Shown piece after piece: positions 26 to 64,000 of a stretch of 64,000 nt of DNA. Position 1 is the first letter of the stretch. The number at the start of each line of letters is the position of its first letter. Source of the DNA: Malassezia furfur (taxonomy: Eukaryota); NCBI GenBank assembly GCA_052055015.1, contig JBQJIT010000018.1; one strand, 5' to 3'. The notes under the pieces are model-generated. The model searched no databases and had not been told where the DNA came from. It was given only the letters and a program-made list of their open reading frames with translations. The translations under genes were made by a program, and so were the position numbers.

Positions 26-1437
26 ATGCTCGCGAGCGACTTTGTGTGGCGCGTGTTTGTGCCGTTCAAGTTTGACGCACAAAACGACACGCTCACCTAC
101 ACCGACTTCCCCTCGCTCGCGGACGTGTGCGCCGACGCGGCGATCGCCGAGCAGGACGCCGTGGAGCTCGTCGTGCAGATCGCCGCGGGACCCTCGGTGC
201 AGACGGCGCCCGTGGCCGAGGCGACGCAGGACGCACGGCTCCCGTTCGAGACGCCGAGCGCAGTGCAGATGCCGCGCAGCCTCGTGCATGCGCTCGCGCA
301 CCTCGTCGACGACGCGGGCACAGGCGACCTTATGATCATCGTCCGCGAAAAGGGGCTCCAGCAACACCCTACCGCGGAGCTCGCGGCGAGCGTCGGGCTC
401 AAGACATTTGTGCAGCCGTGGCCGACCGGCACGCCGATGCCCGTGCTCACCGACGACGTCGAGCCAGACGTGTTTGTGCGCGACCGCGTGCTGTGGGCGC
501 ATGCGTCGGTGCTGCGCGCGCGCAGTGAATTCTTCGACACGATGCTCAGCTCCGAGTTTAGCGAGAGCGCGCAGCACGACGCGCCCGGCGCGTCGCGCGC
601 GCCGGGCTGGCGGCGGCCGTACCGTGTGCTGCGGATCCCAGACGCAGACTACGTCACGCTCTACTGGTTCCTGCGCTACCTCTACACCGACGAGGTGCAG
701 CTGCTCCCCGCCGAGGACATCCAGGCGGTGACGCTGGACGACCACTGGATCCTCGGGCAGGACGGCGCATCGGACCGTCTCGACTGGAAGTGGCGCCGCG
801 TGTACGCCAACGAGGACGACGCCAGCACCCTCGCCTCCTCGCCGGGCGCCGCCGACACCAGCGTGAGCCGCTTGGCACAGACGCGCACGCCGCTCGTGAC
901 GAGCGCCGCGACGAACCCGACGCTGACCGATCTGCACTCGGGCCACAACGTGGAGATCACCACGAGCCCGCGCGATGGCACGCCGCAGTGCCGCCCCACC
1001 AAGACGCACGGCCGGCAGCGCTCGGGCGGCGCGTCCAGTGCGCTGTACGCCTCCGATCCACACCCGCACCCGCCGATGCTCGCGGTGCCGCCGGCGTCGG
1101 CGCTCGCGCTCTACCGCCTCGCGCACCGATACCACATCCCCACGTTGTGCGAGCTGACTACGACGCACATCATTGCGCAGCTCACGCCGCAGAACGCGAC
1201 CAACTACCTCTTGTGTACGGCGCTCTTTGATCAGCTGCAGTACGCAATTCAGCACTACATCTGTACGTTTCACACACTCACGCAGTCCAACATTGGCACG
1301 ATGTGTCGTCCAGCGAAGAGTTTGAGCGCTGCTGCGACCAGGTGTCCGAGGGCGATTGGGGGCCCTCGGCGGGCCGCGCGCTCGCCTCCCTCATGCGCAA
1401 TCTGCGATTGGCCGAAACCCAATCGGGTTTCCCATAG
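26..1437 (+). CDS. BTB/POZ-domain protein; frame is open to the window edge, so probably 5'-truncated; intron 1263-1285
   Basis: BTB-like LWAHASVLRARSEFFDTMLSSEFSES, YWFLRYLYTD and LYRLAHRY; removing a 23-nt GTACGT..CTCAC..CAG intron gives QHYIFQHWHDVSSSEEFERCCDQVSEGDWG and a TAG at 1435-1437. Confidence 0.75.
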
Positions 1438-1479
1438 CCACGTAGCGATCTGGCTGCGCCCGGACCACACCGTTGCCCC

Positions 1480-2397
1480 ATGCCGCCCGCTTCGCGCGCC
1501 TGGTGGACCGCGCTGCCGGCGTCGCTCGCCGTGCTGACAACGACCGCATACTCGCGCACCGCACGTTACTACTTCAATGCCGTACTCTACATCGCCCTGA
1601 TGGGCGTCTGCAGCATCCTTGGCGTCGTGTACCCGTTGCTGTTCAGCGTCGTCGGCCAGCGCTACAACACCAACTACGCCGTTGCACGCTCGTTCTATGC
1701 TCTGACAGGCACACTCATCGGCATCAAGATCACCATCGTCGAGGGTGAAGAGTACCTCAAGCAGCGCCCTGCCATCATTCTCGGCAACCACCAGAGCTTC
1801 CTGGACATCCTCTACTTGGGCCGCATGTTCCCCTCGGGCTCGGTCATCATGGCCAAGAAGGAGCTTAGGTGGATGCCCCTCCTCGGCCAGTTCAGTATGT
1901 TTGCTCTTACTCACACAGTGATGCTCGGCGGCAACGTGTTTATCGACCGCAAGAGCCGCGCCAGCGCGATCCAGACCACCAAGGCGGCCGGCGAGCAAAT
2001 GCGCAAGCACAAGCTCGCGCTCTTCGCTTTCCCCGAGGGAACACGCTCGCACGCATCCAAGCCAATGCTGCTTCCGTTCAAGAAGGGCATCTTTCACTTG
2101 GCCATCGAGACGCAGCTCCCCATCATCCCGCTCGTGTGCGAAAACTACCACCACCTCTACGACAGCAAGACGCGCTTCGACGGTGGAGAAATTCGCCTCG
2201 CAGTGTTGCCGCCCGTGAGCACCCAGGGCCTCACGATCGCCGACACGGACGCGCTCATCAAGCGCGTGTACGACGCCATGCTCGAGCGCCTGCTGCGTTT
2301 TGGCAGCGACGGGGATGCGGCCACCTCCTCGGCGCTGTCGGAGCCAGAATCCGGAAAGAACACGCATGGCCTCGCGGGTCTCGTCGCGCGCCTGTAG
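1480..2397 (+). CDS. SLC1: 1-acyl-sn-glycerol-3-phosphate acyltransferase (AGPAT) copy 1; in-frame intron 1895-1918
   Basis: NHQSFLD (NHxxxxD), FIDR and FPEGTRS motifs; splicing the 24-nt intron restores GQFMMLGGNVFIDR. Confidence 0.92.
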   Translation: MPPASRAWWTALPASLAVLTTTAYSRTARYYFNAVLYIALMGVCSILGVVYPLLFSVVGQRYNTNYAVARSFYALTGTLIGIKITIVEGEEYLKQRPAIILGNHQSFLDILYLGRMFPSGSVIMAKKELRWMPLLGQFSMFALTHTVMLGGNVFIDRKSRASAIQTTKAAGEQMRKHKLALFAFPEGTRSHASKPMLLPFKKGIFHLAIETQLPIIPLVCENYHHLYDSKTRFDGGEIRLAVLPPVSTQGLTIADTDALIKRVYDAMLERLLRFGSDGDAATSSALSEPESGKNTHGLAGLVARL

Positions 2398-2513
2398 ATT
2401 GGATTCGTAGCATACGACCCCCGTTGCTTTCGGCTTTTCCCCGCGTGTCGCGCACGTCCGCGCATTATTTCCCCATTTTGCCCAAATTCCCCCACCATTC
2501 GCGTCCGGACACC

Positions 2514-3583
2514 ATGGCCAAGTGGACTAGGAGTGCGTTCTCTTTCTTTTCCGTCTCCTTCTTGCTGTTCTCGTTCGCTTCTGCTCGTTCCCAACGTGTG
2601 CGGCGCCTGTACAATGCGGCATTGTACATCTTCTCCCTGAGCGTATGCAGCACCATTGGTGTGGTATTCCCCCTCGTGTTTGGCCTGTTTGGCCAGCGCT
2701 ACAACACCAACCACATTGTCGCGCGCTCCTTCTACAAGCTGGCTGGCACGCTGATCGGGTACAATGTCAAGATGGAGGGCGCCGAACACCTCAACACGCG
2801 CCCGTCCATCATCGTCGGCAACCACCAGAGCTTCCTGGACATCCTTTACCTCGGCCGTGTCATGCCGCCGAACTCGGTCATCATGGCCAAGAAGGAGCTC
2901 AAGTGGATGCCGCTGCTCGGCCAGTTCAGTATGTTGTTCCTACTCACCCAGTGACGCTCGGCGGTACCCTGTTTATCGACCGCAAGAGTCGCGCTAGTGC
3001 GATCAAGACTATGAACGAGGCCGGCGCGCGCATGCGCAAGAACAAACTCGCGCTCTTCGCGTTCCCCGAGGGCACACGGTCGCACTCGGTGCTCCCGGAG
3101 CTGCTTCCGTTTAAGAAGGGCGTGTTCCATCTTGCGATCCAGACCCAGCTGCCCATTGTCCCTGTCGTTTGCGAAAACTACAGCCGGTTATACGACAGCA
3201 AGACGCGCTTCGAAGGCGGCGACTTGCGCCTGGCTGTCCTGCCGCCCATCAGCACCGAGGGCATGACCAATGAGGACACCGACAAGCTCATTAGCACGGT
3301 GCATGATGCCATGCTGCGCCAGCTCGTCAAGTTCGACCAGGAGAACGATGCGGAGGACGTGCAGCGCACCCTGCACCCTTCGCAGCCTTCGCCCCAGCGT
3401 GTGCGTGGTCTGGCGGGGCTCTTTGCCCGCCTCGTGGGCGACGGCAGCAAGTCGTACCACAACCGCACAGTGCGCCGCGTCCAGAAGGAGGAGGAGCAGC
3501 TGCGTGCCAATGCACACAACGGCACGAGCCCGAGTGACTATGGCCTAGTGTCCGCGTCCCATAGCCAAGCCCCCGCGTCGTAG
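2514..3583 (+). CDS. SLC1: AGPAT copy 2 (tandem paralogue); intron 2929-2951
   Basis: Same NHQSFLD, FIDR and FPEGTRS motifs; 23-nt intron at the identical codon position to copy 1. Confidence 0.92.
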
Positions 3584-3648: not shown

Positions 3649-5367
3649 ATGCTGCCGTGGGCCTGGATCGCTTTCGCTGTGTGCGCGACCCAGGTATTTG
3701 CGTCGGTGCCGCGGGGCGTCGCGCCACAGGGTAAGTGAGCACACTTACATCAGATGCATCACTGTACGAGCCGCATTCGGACAAGGGCGGCGTCGCTATG
3801 TGGAAATGTCTGGGCACCGAGCAGCTCATCCCGCACAGCCGCATTAACGACGACTACTGCGACTGCGACGATGGCTCGGACGAGCCAGGAACCTCAGCGT
3901 GTGATGAGGGCCGCTTCTACTGTGCAAACGCGGGCCACATTCCCAAATACATCCGCAGCTCGTTTGTGAACGACGGTGTGTGCGACTGCTGCGATGGCTC
4001 CGACGAGGTCGAGGGCAAGACACACTGTCCCAACGTGTGCGCGCAGGTGAACAAGGAGTACCGCAAGGAAACAGCCCAAGCTGAGAAAAAGTACCAAGCA
4101 GGCGCTAAGATCCGCGCGCGGTACGTCGCCTCTGCGGCGCAGGACCGCGAATTCCACCAAAAGAACCTCGCGCGCCTGTACGCCGAGCTGCCCGACGCCG
4201 AGCGTACCGAGGCACAACTCAAGCAGGCACTCGAGGATGCAGAGTCGGTCTCGTCCTGGCTCGAGCAGCAGAAGCGCTCCAGCCCGCTCTTTGCCCAGCT
4301 GGAGCTGCGCCAGGCGACGTTGCGTGCGCAGCGCGAGGCGCTGGACAAGCTTGCAGGCGAGCTGCGCATTGTGGCACAGATGATCGAGCGTCTCGGCGGA
4401 GAACCAAACAAGCAGGAGCTTGACGACATCCGCGATGCCTACCGCCTCTGGTTGGGCCGCGTGTTTGACGACCACGATGAGGAGCGGCAGGCGACGCTCG
4501 ACGAGAAACTCTCGCAGCTGTTGCAAAGTGGCACGGAACTCTCGGAAGAGGATCTGCAAACACTCATAAACGAGGACCCTCTCACCCTACTGGACGGCGC
4601 GCCAGACTACGCGGGCCAGGCGCCTCCCGCGGTGCCGCAAGCGCGTACGTTGCCTTGGCTCACTCAGTGCTCCACATCCCGTCGTACTTGCCTGAATCGC
4701 TCGTGCCGCTGTACGAGCGCGGTCTGCAGTGGCTCGTCGATGTGCTCGTGCGTCTGGAGGCCATCCCACCGCCCCAACGCGAAAAGGGCTCGATGCCCCA
4801 CAACTACAAGAGCCGTGTGGGTGTTGCTGCTGCCCGCGATGCGTACGAAAAGAGTCGCGATGCGTTGAATCGGATCAAGGGCGATATCGAATACCACAAC
4901 AAGGCACTCGGGAACCTGTCCAAGAAGTACGGCCGCGAGGGCGAGTTCAAGACGCTGGATGGCACCTGTCTCAAGAAGGACATGGGCGAATACACGTACG
5001 AGTTCTGCTTTGGCGGCACCACGTCGCAAATCTCCAACAACGACGGCTATACCTTCCAGCTGGGGTACGTATTGACCGCTCACGCAGCCGTTTCAAGCAC
5101 TTCGATGTGCAGAACAAGTACAGCAGCGACGACTACCGGCATTATCTCACTATGCTATACGACCGCGGCCAGGCGTGCTGGAACGGTCCGATACGTTCGA
5201 CGCGCGTCACGCTCGAGTGCAGCGACAAAAACGAACTCTTGGATGTGTTCGAGGCGGAAAAGTGCACATATTCTATGCGCGTCGCGTCGCCCGTGGTGTG
5301 CTTCCCCAGGGAGGAGTCCCCCAAGGAGGAGCCCATCAAGCAGGAGGTGGAGCACACCGAACTGTAG
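3649..5367 (+). CDS. GTB1: Glucosidase II beta subunit (PRKCSH family); introns 3731-3753, 4645-4667, 5065-5087
   Basis: Signal peptide, LDLa-like INDDYCDCDDGSDEPGTSAC, MRH domain (CWNGPIRS...EAEKC) and C-terminal HTEL ER-retention signal. Confidence 0.92.
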
Positions 5368-5374
5368 CTGCCAT

Positions 5375-5657
5375 CTAATTAACATGGATCTCCTGGTTTG
5401 GTTCGATAGACTCACTGGGGTCAGTACGGAGCGTACATCAGGCCGTCGTCCTTCTTGCTCTGCTCAAGCTTCTCCACGTAGTTGGGCGGCATACGCGCCG
5501 CGAAGCCGCGGAGGAAGTCGGCATTATAGCGTTGCTGGATCGTGCCACCTTGCTGCTGCACTTCGTCGACGTATTTGTCAACGTCTTTGTCGGTGGCCGA
5601 CTTGCGAAACATCCTGCACCGGTCAAGGAGCTCGACTTACACAACGTACGACTGCAT
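5375..5657 (-). CDS. Small peptidase inhibitor I9 / proteinase B inhibitor-like protein; introns 5614-5640, 5415-5436
   Basis: Spliced product MQSYVVMFRKSAT...GGTIQQRY..FLRGFAARMP...LIESIEPNQEIHVN matches the I9 pattern (YIVxF, GG.I..Y, GFAA, IE.DQ). Confidence 0.8.
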
Positions 5658-5711: not shown

Positions 5712-8319
5712 ATGGAATCGTCCTTGGAAGCGGGGGTTGTGACCGCTCTTGGCGCCGACTGGCCGCCGGAACAGCTCGTCGAGCAGGTACGCCACATTGC
5801 ACAAGAGCATGAGCTGCCAGAGGAACATGCATTGCGCGCGCTGCCGGACATCCTTATCCGGATCGTCTTTGCAGTAGACCCGGCCCCGGCACAAGCCATG
5901 CACTACCTCTCCGCATTGTGCATCGCGCCGCTCCCAAGCGAGAATGCCCAGCACGCGTTCATCGGCGCAGCTCTGGTGTCTCTTTTGAAACATGCCGACC
6001 ACGATGCAAACAAAGCGGACCAGGTCTGTGCACTCTTCTTCCATGGCAGCGACGATGCTCTACCGATCACAGCCGCGGAGCTCGCCAAGAACCTGCCCGA
6101 TAGCCAACTGTGGCCAACCGCTTTCGCGTTGGTCCGCTTGGCCTTGCAGCTCCATGCCCCGCGCTCAGCATCAGCGTCGCTGTTTATGCGCCTTGCGACG
6201 CAAACCCACAACGAACCGCTTCCTGATTCTTTTGCTGCGCTCCTACACGACGTTGAGAGCGCATGCACCCAAAATGCGGCTTGGTCCCCCATTGCACAGA
6301 CATTGGCCAACTTTGAAAAGCACCCTGAAGATGCTGAGACTCGTATGAGCCCGTCGGCGCTCCCTGACCTCTGGAGCGGGCGACAGACTCTGGCATATGC
6401 GTTGGGCCTGGCAGGTGCTGCGCACCAACTCCAAAACAACGGTGGGCGCACTCCTGCGCTTCCGCAGGCCCCACATCCCGAACCAGATACGGTGCTCTTC
6501 GTGTACCACCTGTCGTCAGATGCTTACGATTGGTCGCAAAAATGCGCCATGGCGCAGGGACTCTTGGCTGTGCGCCTAGCGTATACGGAGATTGAACCAA
6601 AGAAGGCCCGGCTGGCATTCTACGTCGAATTGCTGATTGCCACAAGCCATGCAGCCCTGACCTGCATCTCGACTCACCAGGATCGCGCACCGTATTGGCG
6701 CGGATTTGTCGGTGGCATTCTACCTCCCCTTCTCCGGTATCTCGACAGTGAGAGCAGTGCAGAGGCACAACGGATGCTCTCTGCTACGCTCGCTGCATTT
6801 GTCGAGTTGCATGCTCCGCTCAGTCAATGGGCCGCTGCCGAGCCCGCCATGGAGCCTGCGTTGCCCGAGCATATCCTGCGGTGCATGGCAAGTTGGGGTC
6901 TCGTCGAAACGCATGCGAGCGAGCCTGTCCAGCCGGATGAACTTGTACGGGTGGCCAGCCCGGATCTCCAGCAGTATGCTGCAAATGTCCAGGCACAGAT
7001 CCAAGTGCAAGGTGGCCTGGCGGCCTTGGCCATGCAAGCTGCGTCCGATCCTGCGCGCCAGTTGTGCTTTGCACACGTAGTAGCGCGCTTTGCTACGTCC
7101 TGGTATCAAGGCCTGCCCAACATGGAGCATGTGGCTGAGGTCTGTGGGGCACTGGGTGTACCAGGCGCCTGCAATGCCCTTTTCCTCTTCTACAGCCGAC
7201 CTTCATTTCTTCGCGCACTACTCGCCGCCGTGCAGCAGCTCACGCCGCGCCAGTGGCAGGACGCAGACGAGCTGGCGTCCATATCCACCGCGCTCCTTTT
7301 CCTCCAGCGGTTCCCGAGCAAAGGGATGGATGCGTGTGGACCTGCATCCGTCTTTTTGGCGTTTGCTCAAATACCCACATTGCCGCGCGAAGCATGGTCG
7401 CAGGGCCGTGCTGAGCTGCTGGACCGCTGGATGGCCGCATTGGTCGGGCCTGAAGGTTTACCCGACGTGCTTCTGCGGTACGTCTCCCAACTTACACAGC
7501 GACTCGCCCCCGTGGACCGTTTATCGACAGGCACCCACCATGATCCAACAGCTCATGGCTTCATACATCGCCCAACGTCTTGACCGAGCTGGATTGGATT
7601 CGGCACTGTCCTACTTTTTGCAAGCACCGTTGCGCTATACGCTACCGTGCATCTTGCACTGGCTCCTGGTGCAAGCCCAGTGTATGGCTGCAAGATCGGT
7701 CTATGCCTCAGTGCCGCACAGTACAATCTATGCCGAGGTGTTCCAATCGCTGATCACGGCTGATACATGCCCAGCACAGGTACGCGCTTTGTTCAGCACG
7801 ACGGCCGCGCCTTTGTTCAGCGATCGGCCCGATCTGGTGACGCTGTTGAAAAGTGCGCCGACGGATTATACCCCCCCTTGGCCCGCCGAGGCGCTCGTGG
7901 CGGTGCTCGGTGGCGATCACCTTGTCCAGGAGGCGGCATCGACGATGCTCGAGACACGCGGGCCTTTTTATGACGCACGATGCATCCTTACCATCGCTGC
8001 GGCGACCACTATGGAGTCCAGCGATGCGCGAGCAGTGTGTGCGGTGCTGGCGCTGGCGTACCCCCCGCTGGTGCTTGCGCGGCGTGCCTTATCCCTACTG
8101 GACGCCGATCGTGCGCCGGCGTCGGAGCTGCGCAATTTGTGCGCATGCTACCTGCAAAGTGCTGCACTCGCTCGCTATCTTCCTGAGGGTCCTGAGGCGG
8201 TGCAAGACGTGCTGAACTCGCTTGAACGCATTGAACGAGTCGCGCCTATGCGCGAAATGTTGGTGGGGGCACGGGCCCCCTTGGCCGCTGTCGCTGCGGC
8301 AATTCCCGATACGTTGTAG
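5712..8319 (+). CDS. MED5: Probable Mediator tail subunit Med5; intron 7478-7499
   Basis: Two long ORFs joined by a 22-nt intron; WMAALVGPEGLPDVLLRDSPP and LSYFLQAPLRYTLP resemble the Med5 conserved block. Confidence 0.65.
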
Positions 8320-8455: not shown

Positions 8456-10134
8456 ATGTACGCCCAATCCGCTACGACGCAACTGGAATGGTTTGCTTCA
8501 ATGCATCCCATCGAGTACAAAATCGATAACATCTTCCTGCGTAAGACGTATGTTCACTCGCCCGCTTATCCAGCTCGATTATCTGCACTATCGGCCCCAA
8601 GACCAACAATGTGCCCATGCTGCAGAAGCTGCGGAAGACGGGTATGAACATCGTGCGCCTGAACGCGAGCCACGGTGACCACTCATACTTTCAGAGTGTG
8701 ATTGACAACGTGCACCAGGTGGAGCGCGAGGCGCCCGGTCGTCCGCTCGCGATCGCCCTCGACACCAAGGGTCCGGAGATGCGGACCGGTGTAATGGAGA
8801 ACAACGAGGACCAGCCGATCGAGGAGGGCCACGAGTTCATCGTTACGGTTGACAAGGCATATGCGGATAAATGCAGTGCGAGCCACCTGTACATCGACTA
8901 CGAGCGCCTGCCACTCAAGGTGCAACCGGACCGCATTATCTACATCGACGACGGCATTCTGGCGTTGCGCGTCCTGTCCATCGAAGGGAATAACGTGCGC
9001 GTGGTTGCGATGAACAACGGTGTGCTGTCCTCCCGCAAGGGTGTCAACCTGCCACTCACCGAGGTCGACCTGCCCGCCGTCTCGGAGAAGGACCGCAAGG
9101 ACCTCGAGTTTGCGCGCGACCAGTCGCTCGACATGGTGTTTGCCTCCTTTATTCGCAGTGGACAGGACATCAAGAGCATCCGTGAGATCCTTGGTGAGAA
9201 GGGCCAGCACATCCGCATTATTGCCAAGATTGAAAACCACCAGGGTCTGGTTAACTTTGACGAGATTCTCGAGGCGGCCGACGGTATTATGGTGGCCCGT
9301 GGTGACCTTGGTATTGAGATTCCGGCCCCGCAGGTGTTCCTTGCGCAGAAGATGATGATTTCCCGGTGCAATATCATGGGCAAGCCGGTGATCTGTGCGA
9401 CGCAAATGCTCGAAAGCATGACGGTCAATAACCGCCCGACCCGTGCCGAAGTGTCCGACGTCGCCAATGCTGTCGTTGATGGTGCGGACTGTGTGATGCT
9501 TTCCGGTGAGACCGCCAAGGGCAAGTACCCTGTGGAGGCGGTCAAAATGATGGCCGAGACGACTTATATCGCCGAGCAGAGCCTTTCCTACCAGGCGCTC
9601 TTTAACGAGATGCGCAGCCTGACGCGCGTGCCGACGAGTACGCAGGAGACGATCGCGCTCGTAGCCGTCTCGGCCTCGCTCGAGCAGCGCGCCGGCGCTA
9701 TCCTGCTCATGTCTACGTCGGGTAATACGGCGCGCCTCGTGAGCAAGTACCGTCCCGAATGTCCGATCCTGATGGGTACGTTCCCCCTTCCCTACTTACC
9801 CCGCAGTCACGCGCAATGTGTACACGGCCCGCTCGTGCCATCTTTACCGTGGTACCTATCCCTTCCACTACCCGCTGCCGAAGATCGACAGCCCGGCCAA
9901 GTGGCAGGAGGATGTGGATAACCGTATCAAGTTTGGTCTGTCGGAGGCGCTCAAGCTGCACATCATCAACAAGGGTGATACAGTTATTGCCGTCCAGGGC
10001 TGGCGCGGTGGACAGGGCTATACCAACTCGCTGCGCGTCGTTGTACGTATTCGATTGCCGCGGCTTGCTGACCACAGACGGTCCCTACGTCGACCGAGGG
10101 TTACATTCTCGAGGACACCTCGGCCGGAATCTAG
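8456..10134 (+). CDS. PYK1: Pyruvate kinase; introns 8548-8573, 9776-9806, 10043-10077
   Basis: [47 protein letters not shown] and [12 protein letters not shown] motifs. Confidence 0.97.
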
Positions 10135-10507
10135 CTAGTGGGATAGAGCTGGTGGTAAAAGTTCATATCGAACTTGCTCGTGAGCTCTGGGGTGGCTTTG
10201 GCAAGCGCTTGGAACTCGGGCGCGGCCTGGTGAGCGGCGAGTGCCTCCGCACTCTCGTACTCCTCAAACACGACAATCTCGAGGCCGACGTTGGCTTCGC
10301 GCGTAACACGGTACTGGTGATCAGTGCAACGACTACGCACCGTCTTGGTGCCCGGCTCCTCTGCCGAGTTGGCACGCTTGGCGACCGCAACAACCAGTTC
10401 AGCGAGCTTGTCGGCTTCGCTCTGGCCCTTGGCAACGATACTGCACGTCAGTAGGACACGCACGTGGCAACGAGGATAAACGATCCTTGGCTCGGCGGCG
10501 TCGACAT
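10131..10507 (-). CDS. Small ABM/Dabb-barrel (antibiotic biosynthesis monooxygenase-like) protein; introns 10441-10463, 10314-10340
   Basis: [35 protein letters not shown] are typical ABM-domain motifs; both introns have GT..CTGAY..CAG signals. Confidence 0.8.
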
Positions 10508-31151: not shown

Positions 31152-33677
<2,526 letters not shown>

Positions 33678-49176: not shown

Positions 49177-49780
49177 CTATGCCTTCATGTGCGAACGCAG
49201 GATCTCTTCGGCCATCTCGCGCACCGCCTGCTCGCTGCGCTGGTCGACGAGCGTCTCGGTGTCGAGCTTCTTGCCGATGCCGAGGGGATAGCGGCTGGGT
49301 GAGCGGGAGCGCGACATACCGGAAGAGCGACACCTTGGACGCGACGCCGGGCATCTCATGCATGCGCAGAAACTGCAGCCAGCGATCGACGGTCGCGTCG
49401 CTCGCATCGTACACCTTGATGCTCCGGCGGTGCGTGCGGCGCCAGAAATTTTCCTGGGATTTTTTATGAACAAACGGCCCGCGTGGCACGGTCCAGAGCG
49501 AGGTGCGCGTCGGGAGCGACGCAATCCCGCCCGTGGGGATCTCGAGCGCCTGTGCACACCGCAACGCAAAGTCTGCGAAGAAGTCCAGGTCGAACGTCTT
49601 CTGGTTGTACGACTTGAGCTGCAGCGTCGCGACGTGCACACCGTGCGTCGGCTTCACCGGCGCGACCGGCGGAATGAGTTCTGTGGCCACCGCCGGCTCG
49701 CTCGACTCGGAGCTGTACGCCCGCGTGAGCCGCCGCAACGCGCGTGGCACGCTCGCCGCTCGCTGCGCTGCCCAGAACAT
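49177..49780 (-). CDS. RSM10: Mitochondrial ribosomal protein uS10m; intron 49295-49319
   Basis: LDFFADF, LPTRTSLWTVPRGPFVHKKSQENFWRRTHRR. Confidence 0.92.
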
Positions 49781-52961: not shown

Positions 52962-54551
52962 TTACCAACCGAGTGCGCCGGGGTGCCACGGCAGGTCCTC
53001 CTCCGTGTCCTCCACACGCGTCTGCGCGTCGATCTCGGCGAGCAACACGTGCAGCAGCGCACGCGTCGCCTCGTACAGCTGCGGCGACATGCCGGGCACG
53101 GGCGCGTAGGTCAGCACGCTCACCACGTCGCTCGTCGGGTACGGCGGGAGCGTTGACGCTCGCGTCGACCCCGCGTCCGTCTCGCGCGCCTCCTCCTCGT
53201 CCTTGGCCTCCTCCGCCGCATCGGACGCGTTGCGCGCGAGCGCCTTCTGTGTGCGCTCACGGATCGTCACAGCGTGCTCACCAAATTGCTTTTCGAGCGC
53301 CGCTTGTGTCTCGGGCACACCGCGTGTATAGGTAGTCAGAATGGTGTTTTGCGCGGCGCGCACATCACTAGTCGCCGCCTCGATGGCCTCGCCCATCTTG
53401 CTCTGCTGCTCCTGCATCGCTTTTTCGCGGGCAAACGACGTGCGAATCTCGTTGGTGATGTAGGTGCGGCAGAACTGGCACTGTGCATACGAAGCCTCCA
53501 TGTGCGCGTACATAGTCATCTCGTCCATCGCGCCGACCCGACGCCGGCCGGGCAACTTGGAGAGGTCCACCAGCTCAAACGTGGGCGCACGGTGCACCAT
53601 CTTTTGGCGTATGCGTGCCCGCGCGACACATGTGTGAAACTCACCAAGACTCGACTTGCAGCTCAGCAGGCGTGGCATGCTCTGGTCGGCAAACGCCAGC
53701 GCCGAGCCAGAAAAGAGCTTCTGGTGGTGCTTGTTGTTCTGCGGCACCCCCATTTTCATGCCGAGCTGCAGGATCGTGCGGATGAGCTTTAAGCAGTCCT
53801 CCACATGCTTGTCCGCGAACTTGAGCGCCTGGCGCGCACGCCGCTCACGGTCGATCTCGGTGGGAATCAGCCGGTGCAAGGCCGACTGCAACTCGACTTC
53901 CCATCGCAGCGTCTCGAGCACCGGGAATGCGCTCACGGTCTCGGGCGGGAAGATGCGCGCACCAAGCATCTGCAGTTGCGTACGTAGCGCATCGTAGCGC
54001 GCGCGCGCACTCACGAGGGCATCGCGTGTGCGCTCCAGCTCCGCCTGGCGCGCAACGTCGGCGTCCACCTTGGCTTGTGCCGCGTCGCGCGCCTGTATCG
54101 CGGCAGTCAACTCGGCCTTGAGGTCTAGCATGTTCCGCGAGCGGCGCTGCAGTGCAGGCACAAGGCGCACGAGCACCGCCTTGGCCGACTTGTCGTACGC
54201 GGCTTGCCGCTTTGCTCTGCGTCAGTGGAGGTGAACGCACGCTGCATCCTGGGCACGCTTCAGCACGACCGACGCAGTCTCGATCGAGCCCGAAATTTTC
54301 CATAGATCACGCTTGTTCGTCTCCTGTTGTGTGGGCACGTCGCCCAGGCTGACGAGCTCGGCTGCATCAGTGGCTGCACCTACCGTACAGACGGGTATAC
54401 TGTGTAAGTGTTGTAGACGCACCTCGTCTCCGCTCTCTTGGAACTGTGGGAAATACGACGGCGGTGACGCCCAGGCGGGCTCGCGCGCGAGCACCACGCT
54501 TGGGTCGTGTGGCGCGCCTCCATTCGCCGACTGCATTGTCTTGGCTGTCAT
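52962..54551 (-). CDS. Hypothetical coiled-coil protein; intron 54217-54240
   Basis: 404-aa ORF joined in frame to an upstream exon by a 24-nt GT..CTGAC..CAG intron; heptad-rich; no family recognised. Confidence 0.65.
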
Positions 54552-54600: not shown

Positions 54601-55753
54601 ATGGAGGGCGCCGAGGCAAATGACAACGCCGCGCGCCCGGCGGCCTCCGCCGAGGCGATCGATGGTGGCACGGGGTACAAGTACCAGCAGGAGATTGCAC
54701 AGATGGTATGCCCCGTACACTCACCTAGATGTTCGTCTCGACCGAAGTCGAGAATCCAGACCCACAAGTCACCCGGCTGATCGAAGATATCGTGCGCAAC
54801 CAGGTGATCGAGATGGTGCGTGTGCGCGCCACTGACGCAGATCATCCAATCGCGTTGGCTTGCGATGCGCCGCTCGTCTAAATACCTCATGCCAGAGGAC
54901 CTAATTTTCCTGATCCGGTACGATCGCGCCAAGGTCAATCGGCTGCGTACGTACCTGAGCTGGAAGGACGTGCGCAAGAACGCCAAGGACTCGGGCGGCG
55001 ACGGTGGCGCAGGGCCGGCCGCGGGAGGGGATGCTGGCGAGGGCATCGAGGACACCGCCGTCGACGGGCCCCTCCGCAACAACAAGCGCAAACTCAAGCT
55101 CCCCTGGGAGCTCTCTGCCCTCTTTTTTGAATACCCGCTCGTCGCAAACCCAAACCCAGGCATGGGCGAAGAGGCTGAAGACGAGGACGAAGATACCATC
55201 GAAACCAACGAGGACAGCCTGCGCCGCCTCAAGGCCGCCGACGAGACGACGCGGCGTATGACGCGCGAGGAGTACGTCTTCTACTCCGAGTGCCGGCAGG
55301 CTTCGTTCACTTTCCGCAAGGGTATGTGGTGCGACTCACTCAGCGAAACGCTTCCGCGAATTTATTAACTCGAGTCATTACCTGGACGTCAAGCCGAGCG
55401 ACGACACGATCGATATTCTGGGGTTCCTGGCCTTTGAGGTGGTCCACGAACTGTGCACGTCGGCGATGCGCATCAAGCGCGAATGGGAGGAACGGGCGCA
55501 GGGGGTGCAGGCACGTACACAGCGCACGTTTGAGCACACCGATGCAAAAGAAGACGGCGCCCCCGACGAACACGCCGAAGAGGCAGCATGCACCCTGTTC
55601 AGTCTCCCACCCAGCGCTGAGCCACCGCTCGAGGCCTGGCACATCCGCGAGGCGTTTGCGCAGCTTCAGCGCGACCGCCGCCTGCTTGAGACGGGACGCA
55701 GGACGGCAGGACCGACAGGCGGCTTGCGTCGTACACAGGTATTTGTCATCTAG
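54601..55753 (+). CDS. SPT3: SAGA subunit Spt3; introns 54706-54728, 54816-54840, 55322-55343
   Basis: YQQEIAQMMFV, EDLIFLIRYDRAKVNRLRTYLSWKDVRK, YSECRQASFTFRKAKRFREF and DILGFLAFE. Confidence 0.95.
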
Positions 55754-56798
55754 CTACAATGCATCGTAACGCTGCTGGGTGCTGGCCTTGGCATGCTCTT
55801 GGTACGACCGACGTTCGCTCGGCTCCACCAAGGCGCCGCTGCCCAGTCCGGCACGCTGGGCACCCACGCGGGGGGCAATGGGGGCTTGTTGGGGTATATG
55901 CTCGGCACCATCCGCCATCTTGGCCAGTAGTTGGTAGCCAACGTTGGAGGCATCGAGCGGTGCTGGCTCTGCCGAGACAAGCGGCTCCGTCCGCAGCTCC
56001 GAAGGCCCGACACGGGGTGCAGGGTGGGGCGCATCGGGGTGTAGACCCCGACGCGCAGAGGCACGGTCGCGGTACAGCGGCCGCTCATCCACCGACGCAG
56101 GGCCGGGCGCAACAGGCTTTAGATAGACCTTCTTGAGCTCCCGCAGGTGTTGCTTCGTCTCGTGGCGCGCCTTGCGCTTCTCACTTTGTGTCTTGCGCGC
56201 CTGGTGCGGGCCTTTCAGCGCTTTCGTCGGTGCATCCTGCGCATTCGTACGTGCCTGCGGTGCGAGCGAAATTTCGTTCGCGCCGTCGGGAGACAGTTGG
56301 CACGCGGAGCAGCTCGCCCATGCATTGCCGTGCATATGGACCTCGAATATGTTGCTCTGTACACCAAAACGGATCACATCAAGATGCTGCAGATCAAATG
56401 GACGGCTCGCGTGCTTCTCCGGAGAGAGCCGGAAAAACAGCTCCTCCGGAATTTGGTGAACTCGGCTGCGGGACATCGGCGCTGGGTTTGGCGAGTCGGG
56501 CCGGTAGACAAACGTCCCATGTGTAGAGCCAGTGTCCGTTAAAGACACATTTGGCGGCATATCAAACTGTTTCTTGCGGTATATGGCGAAGATGCGCGCA
56601 TGGTGCTTGCTAACCTCCATAGACGGCAGTCGGAGACGCGGGGTATACGAGCGATCGCGGCCCTAAGATGAGCGCTACACGTACCACAGAAACGCCCTCG
56701 TGACGTCCGTCTACCAGTGCTACCTGCTTGGCGGACGGTAGCACATCGGACGCGAGCTTCACGAGGCGCACGAGCGCGTCGTCCGAGGTATCGAGCAT
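55754..56798 (-). CDS. FHA-domain plus degenerate G-patch protein (AGGF1-like); intron 56663-56684
   Basis: Spliced VSVGRDR..SMEVSKHHA..DTGSTHGTF (FHA), YRDRASARR and NVGYQLLAKM..RAGLG. Confidence 0.8.
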
Positions 56799-56996: not shown

Positions 56997-57000
56997 CTTC

Positions 57001-57087: not shown

Positions 57088-59609
57088 ATGGCCCTGCGAG
57101 CAGTGCGCGGACTGCGGTCTGCTATGCCGACGCGCCGTCTGAGTGTGCCTGTTGTACAGGTGACGCGTGCGAGCTCGACGTTTGCGACGCGCCGCCCCGC
57201 CGTGCGAAGCGCGCGCGTGTGTGCCTGGATGGGTGCATCCCACACTCGCTTGCTCGCGACCGAGGCGGATAGTGCGACGGGCAATGTGACGCCTGTCGTG
57301 AGTGAGGCCGACATCGCGCGGCTGCTGCGCCAGCGCAATGTGGGTATCAGCGCACACATCGACAGCGGGAAGACCACGCTGACCGAGCGTGTGCTGTACT
57401 ACACGGGCCGCATCAAGGACATCCACGAAGTGCGTGGGCGCGACGAGGTCGGTGCCAAGATGGACAGCATGGACCTCGAGCGTGAAAAGGGTATTACCAT
57501 CCAGTCTGCAGCTACCTACTGTAACTGGAAGGCGACACCTCCGACCGAGACGAGCAACGTTACCGGCGACGCGGCGCTCGACACCGAGTCGACCAGCAAG
57601 AAAGAAGACTTCCACATCAACATCATTGACACGCCCGGCCACGTCGACTTCACCATCGAGGTCGAGCGTGCTCTGCGTGTCCTGGACGGTGCTGTGCTTG
57701 TGCTTTGTGCCGTCTCGGGTGTGCAGTCGCAGACCATCACGGTGGATCGCCAGATGCGCCGCTACAATGTGCCGCGCCTGAGTTTCATTAACAAGATGGA
57801 TCGCGCCGGTGCGAACCCGTGGCGTGTCGTGGAGCAAATCCGCACCAAGCTGCGCATGCCGGCCGCGGCACTTCAGGTGCCCATAGCGTCCGAGGAGAGC
57901 CTCGACGGTCTCGTGGACCTGGTGCGCTGGAAGGCCGTGTACAACGAGGGCACCAAGGGTAACGTCGTGCGCGAGACCGACGAGATCCCTGCTGAGGTGC
58001 TGGAGCTCGCCAAGGAGAAGCGTACTGAGTTGATCGAGCAGCTCGCAGATGTGGACGACGAGATGGCCGAGATCTTCATCGAGGAGCGCGAGCCTACTAT
58101 TGCCGAGCTGGCGGCCGCCATCCGCCGTGCGACGGTGGCGTGCCGTTTCTCGCCCGTGTTCATGGGGACGGCCATCAAGAACAAGGGTGTGCAGGCGCTG
58201 CTGGATGGTATGTGTGCCTACCTGCCGAACCCTATGGAGGCGCCTGCGATCGCCAACGACACGCGGCGTGCCAAGCAGATTGCGCAGCAGGCTACTGAGG
58301 AGGGCCAGGCCAACGACGAGATTGTGTCGTCCGCCCAGGCCGGCTCCGAGGTGCAGCTGGTGCCCGCCAGCGACGCGCCCCTGGTGGGTCTGGCGTTCAA
58401 GCTGGAAGAGAGCCGCTTCGGCCAGCTCACCTACATGCGTGTGTACCAGGGCCAGCTACGTCGGGGTGGTGTGATTTTCAACTCGCGTACCGGCAAGAAG
58501 GTCAAGGTGCCGCGTCTGGTCCGCATGCACTCGAACGACATGGAGGACGTCAATGAGATCGGGCCCGGCGAGATCTGCGCCATGTTCGGTGTGGAGTGCT
58601 CGTCCGGCGACACCTTCACGGACGGCAGCACGTCGCTGTCCATGTCGGCCATGTTTGTGCCCGACCCGGTCATTTCGCTGTCCCTTGCTCCCGAGGGCAA
58701 AGACGGCTCGCAGAACTTCTCGCGTGCGCTGAACCGCTTCCAGAAGGAGGACCCTACGTTCCGTGTCCACGTCGACAGTGAGTCGGGCGAGACGATCATC
58801 TCGGGCATGGGTGAGCTGCACCTGGAGATTTATGTGGAGCGCATGCGCCGTGAATACAATGTGCCGTGCAAGACGGGCAAGCCGCGTGTCGCCTTCCGTG
58901 AGACGATCGGCCAGCCTGCCAAGTTCAACTACACCCACAAGAAGCAGACGGGTGGTGCCGGTCAGTTTGGTCGTGTGATTGGCTACATCGAGCCGATGCG
59001 GATGGACGAGGAGACGGGCAAGGACACAGCGTTTGAGAACAGCGTTGTGGGTGGCAATATCCCCTCGGGCTACATCCCTGCCTGTGAAAAGGGCTTCTAC
59101 GATGCGCTCGAGAAGGGCTCGCTTGCGGGGTACCCCGTGTGCGGTGTCCGTTTCGTGCTGGAGGATGGTGCGGCGCACAGCGTCGACTCGTCCGAACTGG
59201 CATTCCGTATCGCCACGGTCGCGGCCTTCCGCGAGGCGTTCAACAATGCGCAGCCCATGATCCTCGAGCCCAAGATGACCGTCGAGGTGGTGGCCCCGGT
59301 GGAGTTCCAGGGTGCGGTCATTGGCGCGCTCAACCAGCGCAAGGGCACTATCGAGGACACCGAGGTCCGCGAGGACGAGTTCACGATCCGTGCCGAGGTC
59401 AGCTTGAACGACATGTTTGGCTATTCGAGCCAGCGTACGTATATTCTCGCTCACCACAGTCCGCGGCCTCACGCAGGGCAAGGGCGAGTTCTCTATGGAG
59501 TACAAGAAGCACGAGCCTGTCATGCCCAACATCCAGGCGGAGATGCAGAGTGGTGTGTACCTCCTTCCTTGCTGACGCAGCCTATCGCAAGAGCCAAGAA
59601 AAGAAGTAG
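57088..59609 (+). CDS. MEF1: Mitochondrial elongation factor G1; introns 59435-59459, 59553-59580
   Basis: [45 protein letters not shown] and [10 protein letters not shown]; Arg-rich presequence. Confidence 0.96.
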
Positions 59610-59832: not shown

Positions 59833-61268
59833 TCACGCTTGCAGCAGCAGGGACGGTACCGCCATATCGCTGCTCGATTCGTCGAAATAGGGGTCAAACT
59901 CGGCCTTGTTGAACTGTGCCGGAGCGGGCGATGCATGTGACGACCCCGCCGCACCTGCTATCGACCCGAGCACCGCAAAGCGCTCGGCCAAGGTAGGGTA
60001 GGACTGGAAATAGGCGTTGTATAGTGGGTCGGCAAAGAGCGGCGCATCGGCCGCCAGGTACAGCTTGAGCAGTGCATTCTCAAAGCACACTTTCAGGTCC
60101 GCACCTGTCGCGAAACTCGATGCCTCGTAGTCGACCCAGTCATTCACCAACTCATCCTCCACAACCATCTGTGCACACCGCACAGCGAAGCGACTGGGGG
60201 TCAGCAAGTCCATACGTACCGATCCTTTGCACACACGGAGCGTCGCGACAGAAAGTTGATCTGCAGCGTTGCGGCCACCAGCAGCGGCCGCAAGAGGAGC
60301 GCCGCCAGCGCACTGCCAACAACGAGCGGCGGCGTATCGATCACGGCCGGCATGCCCTGCCCCGCTGCGCCAAATCCAAATGCACGCAGGAACAGAGGGT
60401 TGCGGTTGACCAGCTGCACAAAAAGCACCGTAAAGACGAGATTAAATGCGAAGACGGTGCGCTGGGCGAACATCGACACCTTGGTGCTGCACTCGTACGT
60501 GCGGAGCGCCTCGGCCTCCTCCCTGGTCAGCTGGAGGAGCTCCTCGGGGTGCATATAGCCCTTTTCGTCACTGTCGGCGGGCGATGCGGCAGTCGACGCC
60601 TCGATCGGCGCGATGCATTGCGTTGAAGGCATTGAAGGCATGAGCGGCACGTTGATAAAGAAGACCACCATCGGGATCACGCATGCGGCAGCCGTATCGG
60701 CCACTGCGACTGCACCTGACTGCAGTGGCCATGCGCCGAGCTGCGTCGTGCTAGCGACATGCACTGCGCCCAGCACGAAGATCGCCGCTACTGTCGCGCG
60801 ATCGAGGAAGAAGGCGGCAAGCGACGGCCGCCTCGCGAGGCCGACGCGCCAACACTCTTCGATGTACATGGGTGTGCGCGTCACCGAGCGTAGGAGCTGG
60901 AGCAGCGCGAGCCACACGAGGCTCTGCAGGAAGGCGGCATGTGGCTGATCCAGGCGGACCAGGCACCCTGCCCAGTTCCATGCGATTGGCAGGAGACCGA
61001 ACTGCACAGAGCACACGATGGTGTTGAGCACGATGTTGGCGCGCCCCATCTGGGCTGTAAAGGTGCGCTGGAAGCGCTGGGCGCTGAACCGGAACTCGTC
61101 TGGGGTAACGCTGGACGTGAGTACGACAGGAACGGCCTTGGACCGGCTCAAACGCCGCTGCCGTACAAGCAGGACGACCTTCATGATCCAGTCCAGTCCT
61201 GCTATCAGCACGACCAAGGTGGCCCACGACGCGGCATCGCGCCCCTGCATCGCCTCGCTCCACGGCAT
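59833..61268 (-). CDS. Divergent STE24-like membrane protein lacking catalytic residues; intron 60194-60219
   Basis: Collinear with neighbouring STE24 (RQ.R, AW.WA, P, AFGF, RR...DR, ALLKL, D.LY.AY..S.PTL.ER) but has no HExxH. Confidence 0.75.
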
Positions 61269-61341
61269 GATAGCTCCGAGAGGGCCTTTGGGCCCCGCTG
61301 GGTGCTCTTACATAATAATAGGCTACCGTACTGCCTACTGC

Positions 61342-62980
61342 CTAATGCGTCTTTTTGGTGGAGGCCACCCGGTCGAGCGCCACGAGCCGCTCGGTGAGCG
61401 TGGGGTGAGAATGGTGGTAGGCGCTGTACAGAGAATCGTGGTACATAGACGAAAGACTGTGTGAGCATGTGCGCAACGTACTTGTGTATGTGCAGCTTGA
61501 CGAGCGAGCGCTTGAGGAGCTCTGTGTACGGCTCTTGCTCCTCGGGCAGCGCATCCCCAATCGTCTCAGAGGGCAGGCGGTGCGCAGGCACCTCGCTCAG
61601 GCGGTCGACCCAGTCGACCACCGTCGCGCTTGGCTGTACATCGTCGCTGTCACCGCCCTTGGCCTCAATCAGACGCATCGCCTCGATCTCGGCAGCCGTT
61701 CTGGGCGCGCGCGGAAGCTCGGCGGCAAAGCTGGGTTAGGCACTTGCCCACGTACCGGTCAGCGGCGTACTCCATACGGCGCACAGCCGCATTGATACCG
61801 AAGCGGAGCACCGCGTCAGTGGGGTTCAGAACCAACTGGAACAGCTCCAGGCCGACCATCACGGGCAGGTACGGCTCCACGACCAGCGCGCCAGGCGCCA
61901 CGCGCTGCACAAAGCCAAACGCACGGTACAGCGAGGCGTTGTGGATGAACAGCGTGAAGAGCGAGAGCATGAGCACGAGGTTGAGCTGCGACATAAGCAC
62001 GAGCTTCACCGGGTCCGAGTGTGCCCAGTGTCCCAGCTCGTGCGCCAGCACCGCCTCGATCTCTTCGGGCGTCGACTTCTCAATGAGCGTGTCGTAGATG
62101 ACTGGGTCAGCTAGCGCGAGAGCAACATACCGATGTGCTTGCCGCCGCCGGGCACAATGCCGTAAAAGTACGCATTCGAGTGCGAGCTGCGCTTGCTCCC
62201 GTCGATCACGTACAGGTGCTTGAGCGGGAAGTGCAGCGCACTCGCAAGCGCCACGACGCGGTCGCGCAGGGCGCCCTCGGAGAGCGGCGTGAGCTTGTTA
62301 AAGAACGGTTGGATGACGAGCGGGTAGAGCACGCTGCCGAACAGGATGACCACCGTGAAGAGCAGCATGACGTACACGACAAAGTAGTCTCCCGCCCAGC
62401 GGATCACCCACACGGCGAGCATCACGAGCGGCGCACCGATGGCGGCGCCGACGACCCACCCCTTGATGGTGTCGCTGACGAACGTCGCGAGCGTGAGCTT
62501 GTTGAACCCGTGGCGCTCCTCAACGACAAAGTTGCGGTACAGCCCGAGCGGGATGCCCACCACCTCGTGCATTGCCGAGTTCACAATGACCCACATCGCC
62601 GACTTGGTCACCTCGTTCGCCGGCGCACCGACGGCGGTGAGCAGGTCGCTGGCCCACACCCACGCAAGCGCGTAGAAATCGAAGTAGACGGCGGCGAGGT
62701 TGTATGCATGCGCAATCGCGTCCGAGACCAGCGCAAAGCGCGCCTTGTCGCGGCCGTATGCCTGGCTTTTGGTAAAGGTGTCGAGCGACACGTGGGGTAC
62801 GAGCGCCTTGGGCGGCATCGTCTTGTCGTACAGGCGCAACTGGCGCACCGCTACGTACGTCTCGAACAGGTACACGCCCCACAGCAGGCAGATCACCAGC
62901 TGCTTCCAGGGGATCGTGGGCGTGTCGAGGTACGCGGCGGCGCCCTTAATTTCGCTCGCGGCGTGCGCGAGCCAGGTCAT
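61342..62980 (-). CDS. STE24: CaaX prenyl protease 1 (peptidase M48); introns 62102-62130, 61731-61755, 61457-61481
   Basis: EERHGFNK, DGSKRSSHSNAYFYG, AVLAHELGHW, RRMEYAAD and YHHSHPTLTERL. Confidence 0.96.
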
Positions 62981-63000
62981 GGTGGTATGGGTTTAGTCAG

Positions 63001-64000
63001 CTACCAGAAGTCGTCCTCGTCGTCGCGGCCGCGCTGGCGCTTGGACGCGACGGCCTGTGCGCGGTACATGTGTGCAATCTGCTCGGGCGCCGTCGACTCT
63101 TCGGGCGCCTTGTCGTCGCGGATGCGGAGGAAGCGCGGGAAGCGCAGCGAGATGCCGCGCGCGTCGATGAGGCCCTTGGCCGCCGTGTACACTGGGCTCA
63201 GCGACAGGTCCGCCGTGAGCACCTCCCAGACGATTTTTGGCGCGAAATAGACCTGGGTGAGCAGCGCACACGTACATCGGGTTTTGCATCGCCGACATCA
63301 TAGTATCCCTTTTTCTGCGTAAGCTCCAGTGCCTTGAGCGTGGTGTAGTGCGCGTCCAGATCGGCCTCGGAGAAGCCGGTGCCGATCTTGCAGATGCTCT
63401 GGTACGTCTCCGAGTCCTCGTCGTCTGCGTCAGCAACAGCACACGCACAGCACGCAAGGAGGAAGGCACCGTACACGTTGGTGCGCTTGCCCTTGCCGTA
63501 GTAGCCGCCGATTACGGTCAGATCGAGGCTGTCGCCCGTGTCGGACACTGGGTGAGTCGTGCGGCGTACAATAGTCCTTTTTGAGCTTGAGCCAGTTGAT
63601 CGAGCGGCGGCTTGGTTCGTACGTCGCGTCGGCGCCGTCGAGCATCTTGACCATGAGTCCCTCGCAGCCGCTTGCGACGCTCTCGTCCAGGAACGTCTGG
63701 ATCTCTTCGGTGGTGTGGCAGTCGCGGCGCGTCGCAAAGTCAAACTCGTCGGCGACCGGAACAAAGTGCGCAAACAGCTTGGCGCGGCGCTCCGAGAGCG
63801 CGAGATGCAGCAGCGGCTCACCGTTCAGGTAGAGCAGGTCGAAGCCAAACAGCTTTACAAACACCTTAATGTCCTCCGCCTTGACATCCTTGCGCTTCCG
63901 CCGGCTCAGCTCCTGGAAGGGCAACAGGCGCCCGACACTGGCGTCCGGCCGCTCGGCACGCGCAACGTGCAGCGGCTGCCACGCGACCGCCTCGGCGTCG
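63001..64000 (-). CDS. CDC9: DNA ligase I, 3' part (gene continues beyond the window); introns 63548-63569, 63425-63448, 63253-63275
   Basis: FDLLYLNGE, CEGLMVK, WLKLKKDY, CKIGTGFS and SLRFPRFLRIRDDK. Confidence 0.96.

Follow-up and report, generated by a model that had tools for sequence, protein, structure and literature searches.

Ultra-short spliceosomal introns with a predicted 21-nucleotide floor in Malassezia furfur and their probable removal by a largely conventional major spliceosome

The genes on a stretch of 64,000 nucleotides (nt) of the Malassezia furfur genome (contig C18, hereafter the window), which belongs to an assembly of 13.68 Mb in 1856 contigs, are interrupted by 78 GT-AG introns of 21-41 nt. 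Comparison of sequences confirmed these segments as real, genome-wide spliceosomal introns of U2 type, and their predicted minimum is 16+5 = 21 nt, with the branch adenosine (branch A) at position 16 and five nucleotides behind it, a floor that is sharp. Probably they are ordinary U2-type introns of a compact genome that shrank to a physical floor and are excised by a major spliceosome whose core is conventional. At stake is the question how a spliceosome of several megadaltons can form on introns as small as 15-25 nt.

A second copy of the window region was found in the same assembly, with 86-89% identity over 55,969 of the 64,000 bases. A DNA search with positions 1-20000 had given no match in spite of this copy, and two open reading frames looked up exactly were likewise without a match. 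SF3B1 is 97% identical to SF3B1 of Malassezia brasiliensis, and the best named matches of SF3A2 and ERG7 were also from Malassezia. Doubled assemblies have been described for M. furfur hybrids (available portion of PMC4634964), and the present genome appears to be a hybrid of the furfur group with two subgenomes, the corresponding copies of which are referred to as homeologs.

The window was scanned for the pattern GTRNGT..CTNAY..YAG with 40 fourth-order Markov simulations as the null. In the class of 21-28 nt 61 matches were observed against 1.9 expected, an enrichment of about 30-fold, while no enrichment over the simulations was seen at lengths above 36 nt. Introns were accepted by position weight matrices, trained on seeds of 21-35 nt with lengths from 13 nt allowed, together with homeolog evidence. 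Applied to loci of other eukaryotes totalling 641 kb, the matrix scan produced four matches at 21-28 nt. From 81 initial picks five longer ones were removed (36388, 38123, 44825, 46439 and 57340, rejected after the phase test described below as antisense to genes, within a conserved motif or untestable) and one pick of 53 nt was divided into two introns. The final set consists of 77 standard introns and one 26-mer with an atypical donor (33852-33877). The 77 show a median of 23 nt and a mean of 24.7 nt (21 nt: 5; 22: 16; 23: 18; 24: 6; 25: 14; 26: 3; 27: 2; 28: 5; 29 or more: 8). An initial annotation of this DNA had reported 76 introns of 21-41 nt with a median of 24 nt, of which the length range stands, whereas the count is raised to 78 and the median lowered to 23. 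Genome-wide, 324 candidates of 21-41 nt have a median of 24 nt. Lengths divisible by three account for 15 of the 78 window introns and for 94 of the 324 genome candidates (p = 0.11), which does not establish a deficit of such lengths.

The donors of the 77 introns are mainly GTACGT (40), GTATGT (14) and GTGCGT (10), and at donor position +4 the 331 genome candidates have C 248 times, T 60 times, G 14 times and A nine times. The layout proposed earlier, a short donor, a CTNAC-type branch site and a YAG close by without pyrimidine tract, holds across all 77, with a 6-nt donor, a free spacer and a branch motif RCTNAC, and with G or C at 448 of 728 spacer bases the introns are GC-rich. GT...AG ends and a consensus like GTRNGT correspond to U2-type introns. 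U12-type introns carry an RTATCC donor and a CCTTAAC branch site, and by their donors the window introns do not belong to this class. Neither do they follow the myxozoan or Stentor style of degenerate signals (GTa..AG) and AU-rich interior, since a strong hexamer donor and a branch motif are retained.

The two subgenomes allowed splicing to be examined comparatively. Picked from the window alone, 67 strict candidates of 21-41 nt were obtained, 66 of them with a homeolog, and 65 of the 66 keep GT, G at +5, CTNA and AG; spacer identity between homeologs amounts to 247 of 401 positions (62%) as against 3988 of 4438 in the ungapped flanking exon. In 18 of 76 homeolog pairs the lengths are unequal, by up to 5 nt, and none is below 21 nt. 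Codon phase on either side of an intron was read from third-position mismatches between homeologs. In a first pass 45 of 49 informative picks with lengths other than multiples of three (non-3n) rejoined phase, and the four that failed were explained by two false picks antisense to genes, by a neighbour that one of these had thrown off and by a double intron; in the cleaned set all 49 informative non-3n introns rejoin phase, and 14 were uninformative. Furthermore, the public protein P0001 is already spliced at the 23-nt intron behind the SF3A2 start codon.

All seven introns, two of which enclose an exon of 5 nt, have to be taken out for ERG7 to attain 724 amino acids (aa) with two gap positions compared to Testicularia. 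The earlier claim that removal of the segments rejoins frames or restores conserved motifs is thus borne out by the 49 phase cases and by ERG7, and public gene models do fail at such introns, in keeping with the warning that standard gene finders would mis-annotate most of these genes, as errors at or beside an intron site occur in five of the six named Malassezia ERG7 records. The 5-nt micro-exon is apparently common to M. yamatoensis and M. sympodialis, in which the protein records run straight across it. Back-translated by hand, the protein letters of such read-through stretches suggest that this 5-nt exon is flanked by introns of 22 and 23 nt in M. yamatoensis, and that the intron measures 23 nt in M. 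sympodialis and 42 nt in Malassezia sp. CBS 17886.

Branch A positions were predicted from the motif. In none of the 77 window introns and 76 homeologs does the predicted branch A come before position 16, and the distance from there to the intron end is 5-8 nt in all 77 (5 nt in 56), which leaves no room for a pyrimidine tract. Every 21-mer in the window, including 21363-21383, has it at position 16, in line with the distance of about 15-16 nt from the 5' splice site that had been noted for these introns. In a genome sample of 39 stretches (390 kb outside the window) 170 strict candidates of 19-45 nt were found, 144 of them shorter than 30 nt, with 23 at 21 nt and none at 19-20 nt; at 61-120 nt, the longest class scanned, there was no surplus over the null. 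A second sample added 116 loci (323 kb), some of which are homeolog pairs and hence not independent. Among the genome candidates the branch A precedes position 16 in four of 331 and occupies it in 52. For introns below 21 nt, two strict candidates compare with 2.2 expected by chance in the 390 kb, and none was accepted, nor were two further candidates in the 323 kb and one nested in a real window intron. One candidate of 20 nt (L046) and one of 18 nt (L054) have fair scores and no obvious upstream donor, which is within chance expectation. A 21-mer is composed of the donor (1-6), five free bases, the branch helix (12-17) and N-YAG. The branch motif is complementary to GUAGUA of U2, and the pairing potential with U2 is 0.85-1.0 at -4, -3, -2 and +1 and at background (0.19-0.49) from -5 to -12.

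In the human B complex a donor helix of 17 nt, a branch helix of 14 nt and a gap of 15 nm require about 50-52 nt (PMC6692369, accessible text). With 16 nt from donor to branch instead of about 52 nt this arrangement cannot hold here, in agreement with the initial annotation, which had placed the spacing below the normal coverage by U1/U6 and U2-SF3a/b. As the extended helices and the 15-nm gap cannot fit, the intron ends are most likely engaged by short helices one after the other, or else U2 is pulled nearer. Pairing of U1 and then U6 would be confined to the 6-nt donor and that of U2 to about -4 to +1 of the branch site, with a linker of 5 nt or more left over, while SF1 and U2AF1 would read the branch point and the adjoining AG as a single module without a pyrimidine tract. 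The floor would then represent the shortest donor-to-branch loop on which this spliceosome can assemble, and any adaptation would be local, in the form of SF3a/SF3b substitutions and not of subunit loss.

Concerning the machinery, U2 is full length with a normal GUAGUA, U6 has a normal ACAGAGA and AGC triad, U4 and U5 genes are present in two copies each and U1-70K is present twice. SF1 was found, as was U2AF2, which scores under the family cut-off yet can be matched to model positions 108-505, the gene being incomplete because it is cut by contig ends. U2AF1 was found via its two zinc fingers and further motifs which we take to be typical of it. SF3A2 aligns with the human protein over residues 1-204, and SF3B1, SF3B2, SF3B4, SF3B6, Slu7, Isy1, Cwc25 (the latter two with their N-termini), a METTL16-family gene and, read from the sequence, SR-like proteins were all detected. 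The HEAT region of SF3B1 comprises 807 residues in Malassezia and nine of 11 outgroups, the other two having 805 and 812, and the protein retains three U2AF-ligand motifs. Losses of Slu7, suggested by the short branch-to-acceptor distance, and of Isy1, Cwc25, METTL16, SF1 and U2AF were therefore rejected, and likewise a highly reduced spliceosome without U1 proteins, U2AF, SF1 or SF3 subunits, because those searched for are present. The earlier proposal of a spliceosome remodelled by loss or deletion finds no support as a wholesale change, with U2 and U6 normal and no loss noticed in small nuclear RNAs (snRNAs) found, SF3B1, SF3A2 or U2AF.

Some peculiarities of these components were recorded in passing. 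An upstream element AACGGCC followed by TATATA precedes U2, U4 and U5 (L253 1396-1465, L189, L001), one pattern based on it recovered exactly the four U4 and U5 genes, and downstream of U2 and U5 there is a T run with ATGG behind it. In U6, an additional hairpin of 6 bp, closed by a GNRA loop, stands between helix II and the U-tail (L002, about 1485-1510, minus strand; likewise in L003). The two subgenomes have it in identical form, and it was absent from 116 other U6 loci, none of them from Malassezia. The internal stem-loop of U6 with a 6-nt loop was dismissed as a lineage mark, since it occurs in all 116 stretches from other eukaryotes. N-terminal Thr-Pro (TP) motifs of SF3B1 number one here (L043, P0121) and in M. 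brasiliensis, two to seven in other close matches and 3-11 outside Malassezia.

Several observations weigh against a conventional core or the firmness with which it can be proposed. The evidence for splicing is comparative and the branch points are motif-predicted. U1 snRNA was not found with RF00003 (41 of 173 candidates scored) and five patterns, some permitting an altered 5' end and some based on the upstream element common to other snRNA genes; the candidates L193, L194, L240, L245 and six 3'-box loci failed cmscan, and the pair L230/L240 was no more conserved than its flanks. For RED, the RED_N search, run without a positive control, gave no match in the genome. In addition, SF3 proteins have changed at otherwise near-invariant sites: 49 of 498 in SF3B1 (measured on P0121, 99% identical to the genome open reading frame, with invariance defined on 103 other fungi, which favours the outgroup), where the outgroup median is one and the smut-side outgroups shown have 0-8, and eight of 78 in SF3A2, seven of them in residues 23-71 around the zinc finger, compared to two of 187 in the control ERG7. 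The 17 sequences ranked above the first named non-Malassezia match of SF3B1, four of which are named or near-self, have 22-50 changes. Immediately before the zinc finger SF3A2 lacks an otherwise near-invariant His-Leu pair.

It could accordingly be assumed that the spliceosome was specifically remodelled for a 16-nt lariat loop by changes needed for splicing, namely altered RNA-binding surfaces on SF3A2 and SF3B1, loss of B-complex proteins of the RED/Smu1 type and possibly a U1 reading GUACGU, which we consider unlikely but the most serious alternative. Branch-length ratios of Malassezia to six smuts are 2.57 for SF3B1 and 2.37 for SF3A2 but 1.01 for ERG7, relative-rate counts for SF3B1 are about 100 against 35 in all 20 triplets, and the test was significant for SF3A2 in 16 of 20 triplets and for ERG7 in one of 20. 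Further points in its favour are the lost His-Leu pair, the single TP motif of SF3B1, the unmatched RED_N, the extra U6 3' hairpin and the predominance of C at donor +4 despite the METTL16-family gene, METTL16 being tied to donor +4 preference in Saccharomycotina (PMC10581693, in part). However, the rates were controlled by one gene only, SF3A2 is not significantly faster in comparison to Ustilago trichophora (4/20 triplets), and the SF3B1 changes are mostly conservative and shifted to residues with GC-rich codons (GARP 0.30 versus 0.24-0.27), as relaxed selection under GC bias would give. Moreover, R625, H662, K700, K1071, R1074, R1075 and Y1157 of SF3B1 (human numbering), presumably branch-pocket and hotspot sites, are unchanged, and the N-termini of Isy1 and Cwc25 are in place. 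The RED search had no positive control, and U1 escaped covariance models in Cryptococcus, too (PMC10581693, in part). The fast SF3B1 and SF3A2 thus offer a weak hint of a local change in the spliceosome, and a subtle change is possible. A Malassezia spliceosome tuned in the SF3A2 zinc-finger region, in SF3B1, by RED/Smu1 loss and perhaps by a GUACGU-pairing U1 to a hard 16-nt loop, so that canonical B-complex geometry is bypassed, seems doubtful to us; if true, Malassezia would be an unrecognised ultra-short-intron lineage and the first case of this kind in a fungus that can be cultured and transformed and has smut relatives with long introns.

Improbable in our view is a floor at position 16 that is set later or elsewhere than in assembly, whether through the geometry of the lariat during branching, through debranching or because donor and branch motif must not overlap. 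Stentor, which branches at position 10-11 with a conserved core, demonstrates that 16 is no universal assembly limit (PMC9505925, as far as accessible), but the motifs of the 21-mers, at 1-6 and 12-17, leave five free spacer bases that are never shortened, and short donor-to-branch distances in human are tied to an activation block (PMC6692369, accessible text). That the segments are unspliced, as chance motifs, assembly errors or retained coding insertions, is hardly credible although excision in this genome rests on sequence comparison, given the enrichment over simulation, signals conserved independently in the second subgenome, phase restored throughout, a full-length ERG7 that needs all seven introns out and a public protein carrying one of the splices.

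The preferred explanation, short introns at an assembly floor and a conventional core, has to be seen against what is known of other systems. That introns are short has already been published for the genus, and those of ciliates, microsporidia and myxozoans are equally short or even shorter. In the accessible parts of the respective texts, the curated M. sympodialis set has 5350 introns with a mean of 30 bp, 99% of them supported by RNA-seq, compared to means of 50-65 bp in automatic sets (PMC5389616), M. restricta shows a median of 30 (PMC9241646) and a review describes Malassezia introns as "very short" (PMC7426719); M. restricta was annotated with a minimum intron of 15-20 (PMC6473144). Introns of the present genome, with medians of 23-24 nt, are shorter still than in these two congeners. 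The portions available for both species contain no branch-point geometry, floor or spliceosome inventory, and the M. sympodialis length curve in Fig. S8 of PMC5389616 may show the same floor. Nothing on intron geometry was found in the accessible parts of PMC8476143, PMC3560662, PMC5654937, PMC12506658 and 10.1101/638429, and a search that reached few subscription papers and preprint supplements yielded no publication on branch-point geometry or the spliceosome of Malassezia. The novelty claimed initially is therefore lost for shortness as such, documented in sister species, and the genome represents one more lineage with ultra-short U2-type introns, whereas no published account was found of the 16+5 floor, of the intact core inventory or of faster SF3 proteins.

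Among ciliates, Paramecium has introns of about 25 nt. Those of Stentor measure 15-16 nt with branch A at 10-11, and its spliceosome is largely conventional (PMC9505925, in part). According to the accessible texts, ciliates resemble Malassezia in GT-AG ends, major snRNAs, a 5-nt tail after branch A and the largely conventional spliceosome. Stentor differs in introns of 76% AU, a weak branch consensus, a loop of 10-11 nt, the lack of SR proteins and altered Cwc25 and Isy1 N-termini (PMC9505925, same portion), in contrast to Malassezia, where the introns are GC-rich with strong motifs at donor and branch site, the loop has 16 nt and SR-like proteins occur. Myxozoans likewise keep a largely conventional spliceosome. 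Myxobolid myxozoans and Dicyema, with medians of 22-27 bp and conserved U2 and U2AF1/2, are similar in length range, missing pyrimidine tract and host-associated compact genomes but have signals reduced to GTa..AG, where Malassezia retains the hexamer donor and CTNAC motif; the part of this source at hand lists ciliates, Microsporidia and Dicyemida as sub-30-bp lineages and does not name Malassezia (PMC13644364). Human short introns dependent on Smu1/RED are comparable in that the donor-to-branch distance and not the total length is limiting, with a limit of about 50 nt against 16 nt in Malassezia, where the RED search gave no match (PMC6692369, accessible text). The known ultra-short cases (ciliates, nucleomorphs, microsporidia, animal parasites) are mostly hard to manipulate. 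In Yarrowia lipolytica, the branch motif is nearly fused to the acceptor, with one base between motif and CAG, and introns span hundreds of bases; the 3' module is similar, but due to the long introns the donor-to-branch distance is not limiting.

A culturable Malassezia could serve to test how a spliceosome handles tiny loops. For M. furfur, insertional mutagenesis and CRISPR/Cas9 exist (10.1101/638429, in part), and such tools, together with readable motifs and a sharp 16+5 floor, make spacer-length reporters and native spliceosome structures feasible. Protein records corrupted at short introns also matter for work on Malassezia as a skin commensal and opportunist. All accepted introns are compiled in Table 1.

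Table 1. Introns accepted in the window and associated features, with the length of the homeologous intron where given.
Position	Strand	Feature	Homeolog (nt)	Remark
1263..1285	+	intron 23 nt	26	
1895..1918	+	intron 24 nt	22	
2929..2951	+	intron 23 nt, acyltransferase region	24	
3731..3753	+	intron 23 nt, glucosidase II beta gene	25	
4645..4667	+	intron 23 nt		
5065..5087	+	intron 23 nt		
5415..5436	-	intron 22 nt		
7478..7499	+	intron 22 nt		
8548..8573	+	intron 26 nt, pyruvate kinase		
9776..9806	+	intron 31 nt, pyruvate kinase	26	
10043..10077	+	intron 35 nt		phase test uninformative
10314..10340	-	intron 27 nt		
10441..10463	-	intron 23 nt		
12792..12812	-	intron 21 nt, Alg9-like mannosyltransferase		
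13220..13241	-	intron 22 nt		
13896..13928	+	intron 33 nt, protein kinase		
16828..16849	-	intron 22 nt, ATG13	23	
17086..17110	-	intron 25 nt	24	
17472..17494	+	intron 23 nt, Pex16	22	
17509..17533	+	intron 25 nt, Pex16		preceded by 14-nt exon
18888..18910	+	ERG7 intron 1, 23 nt		
19156..19177	+	ERG7 intron 2, 22 nt		
20168..20188	+	ERG7 intron 3, 21 nt		if retained, 7-residue gap versus homologs
20441..20462	+	ERG7 intron 4, 22 nt		
20686..20710	+	ERG7 intron 5, 25 nt	24	
20902..20924	+	ERG7 intron 6, 23 nt		
20925..20929	+	ERG7 micro-exon, 5 nt		if skipped, normal C-terminus lost
20930..20954	+	ERG7 intron 7, 25 nt		
21363..21383	+	intron 21 nt		branch A at position 16; example of initial annotation
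22123..22150	+	intron 28 nt		
22261..22283	+	intron 23 nt		
22319..22359	+	intron 41 nt		longest accepted
22533..22555	+	intron 23 nt		
22803..22826	+	intron 24 nt		
22971..22992	+	intron 22 nt		
23092..23113	+	intron 22 nt		
23601..23622	-	intron 22 nt		
23711..23735	-	intron 25 nt		
28273..28300	+	intron 28 nt		motif only
31384..31410	+	intron 27 nt, SNF1-like kinase		retention gives stop
31599..31622	+	intron 24 nt, SNF1-like kinase		retention gives stop
33797..33821	+	intron 25 nt		
33852..33877	+	probable intron 26 nt	25	atypical donor
40992..41012	-	intron 21 nt, Ras-family GTPase		
41330..41354	+	intron 25 nt		
41505..41528	+	intron 24 nt		
42034..42055	+	intron 22 nt		
43421..44166	-	SF3A2/PRP11 gene, 240 aa		full length
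44140..44162	-	intron 23 nt, directly after SF3A2 start codon		already excised in public protein P0001
44478..44505	+	intron 28 nt, septin		
44529..44556	+	intron 28 nt, septin		weak score
44636..44658	+	intron 23 nt, septin		
46178..46198	-	intron 21 nt		
46257..46279	-	intron 23 nt		
46345..46375	-	intron 31 nt		
46520..46541	-	intron 22 nt		
46954..46979	-	intron 26 nt		
47080..47113	-	intron 34 nt	32	
47276..47300	-	intron 25 nt		
47483..47515	-	intron 33 nt	36	
47986..48007	+	intron 22 nt		
48782..48804	+	intron 23 nt	25	
48994..49018	+	intron 25 nt		
49295..49319	-	intron 25 nt	26	
54217..54240	-	intron 24 nt	23	
54362..54383	-	intron 22 nt		
54400..54422	-	intron 23 nt		
54706..54728	+	intron 23 nt		
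54816..54840	+	intron 25 nt		
55322..55343	+	intron 22 nt		
56663..56684	-	intron 22 nt, FHA-domain gene		
59435..59459	+	intron 25 nt, EF-G family gene		
59553..59580	+	intron 28 nt	33	
60194..60219	-	intron 26 nt	25	
61457..61481	-	intron 25 nt	26	
61731..61755	-	intron 25 nt		
62102..62130	-	intron 29 nt	25	
63253..63275	-	intron 23 nt		
63425..63448	-	intron 24 nt		
63548..63569	-	intron 22 nt		

Besides the introns, two apparent tandem duplications were observed in the window, one of acyltransferase genes at 560-3600, in which the introns at 1895 and 2929 correspond, and one of CAAX prenyl protease (M48) genes at 60200-63000, with two copies. A single open reading frame at 24059-26386 represents a spermidine synthase fused to a saccharopine dehydrogenase, a fusion typical of basidiomycetes.

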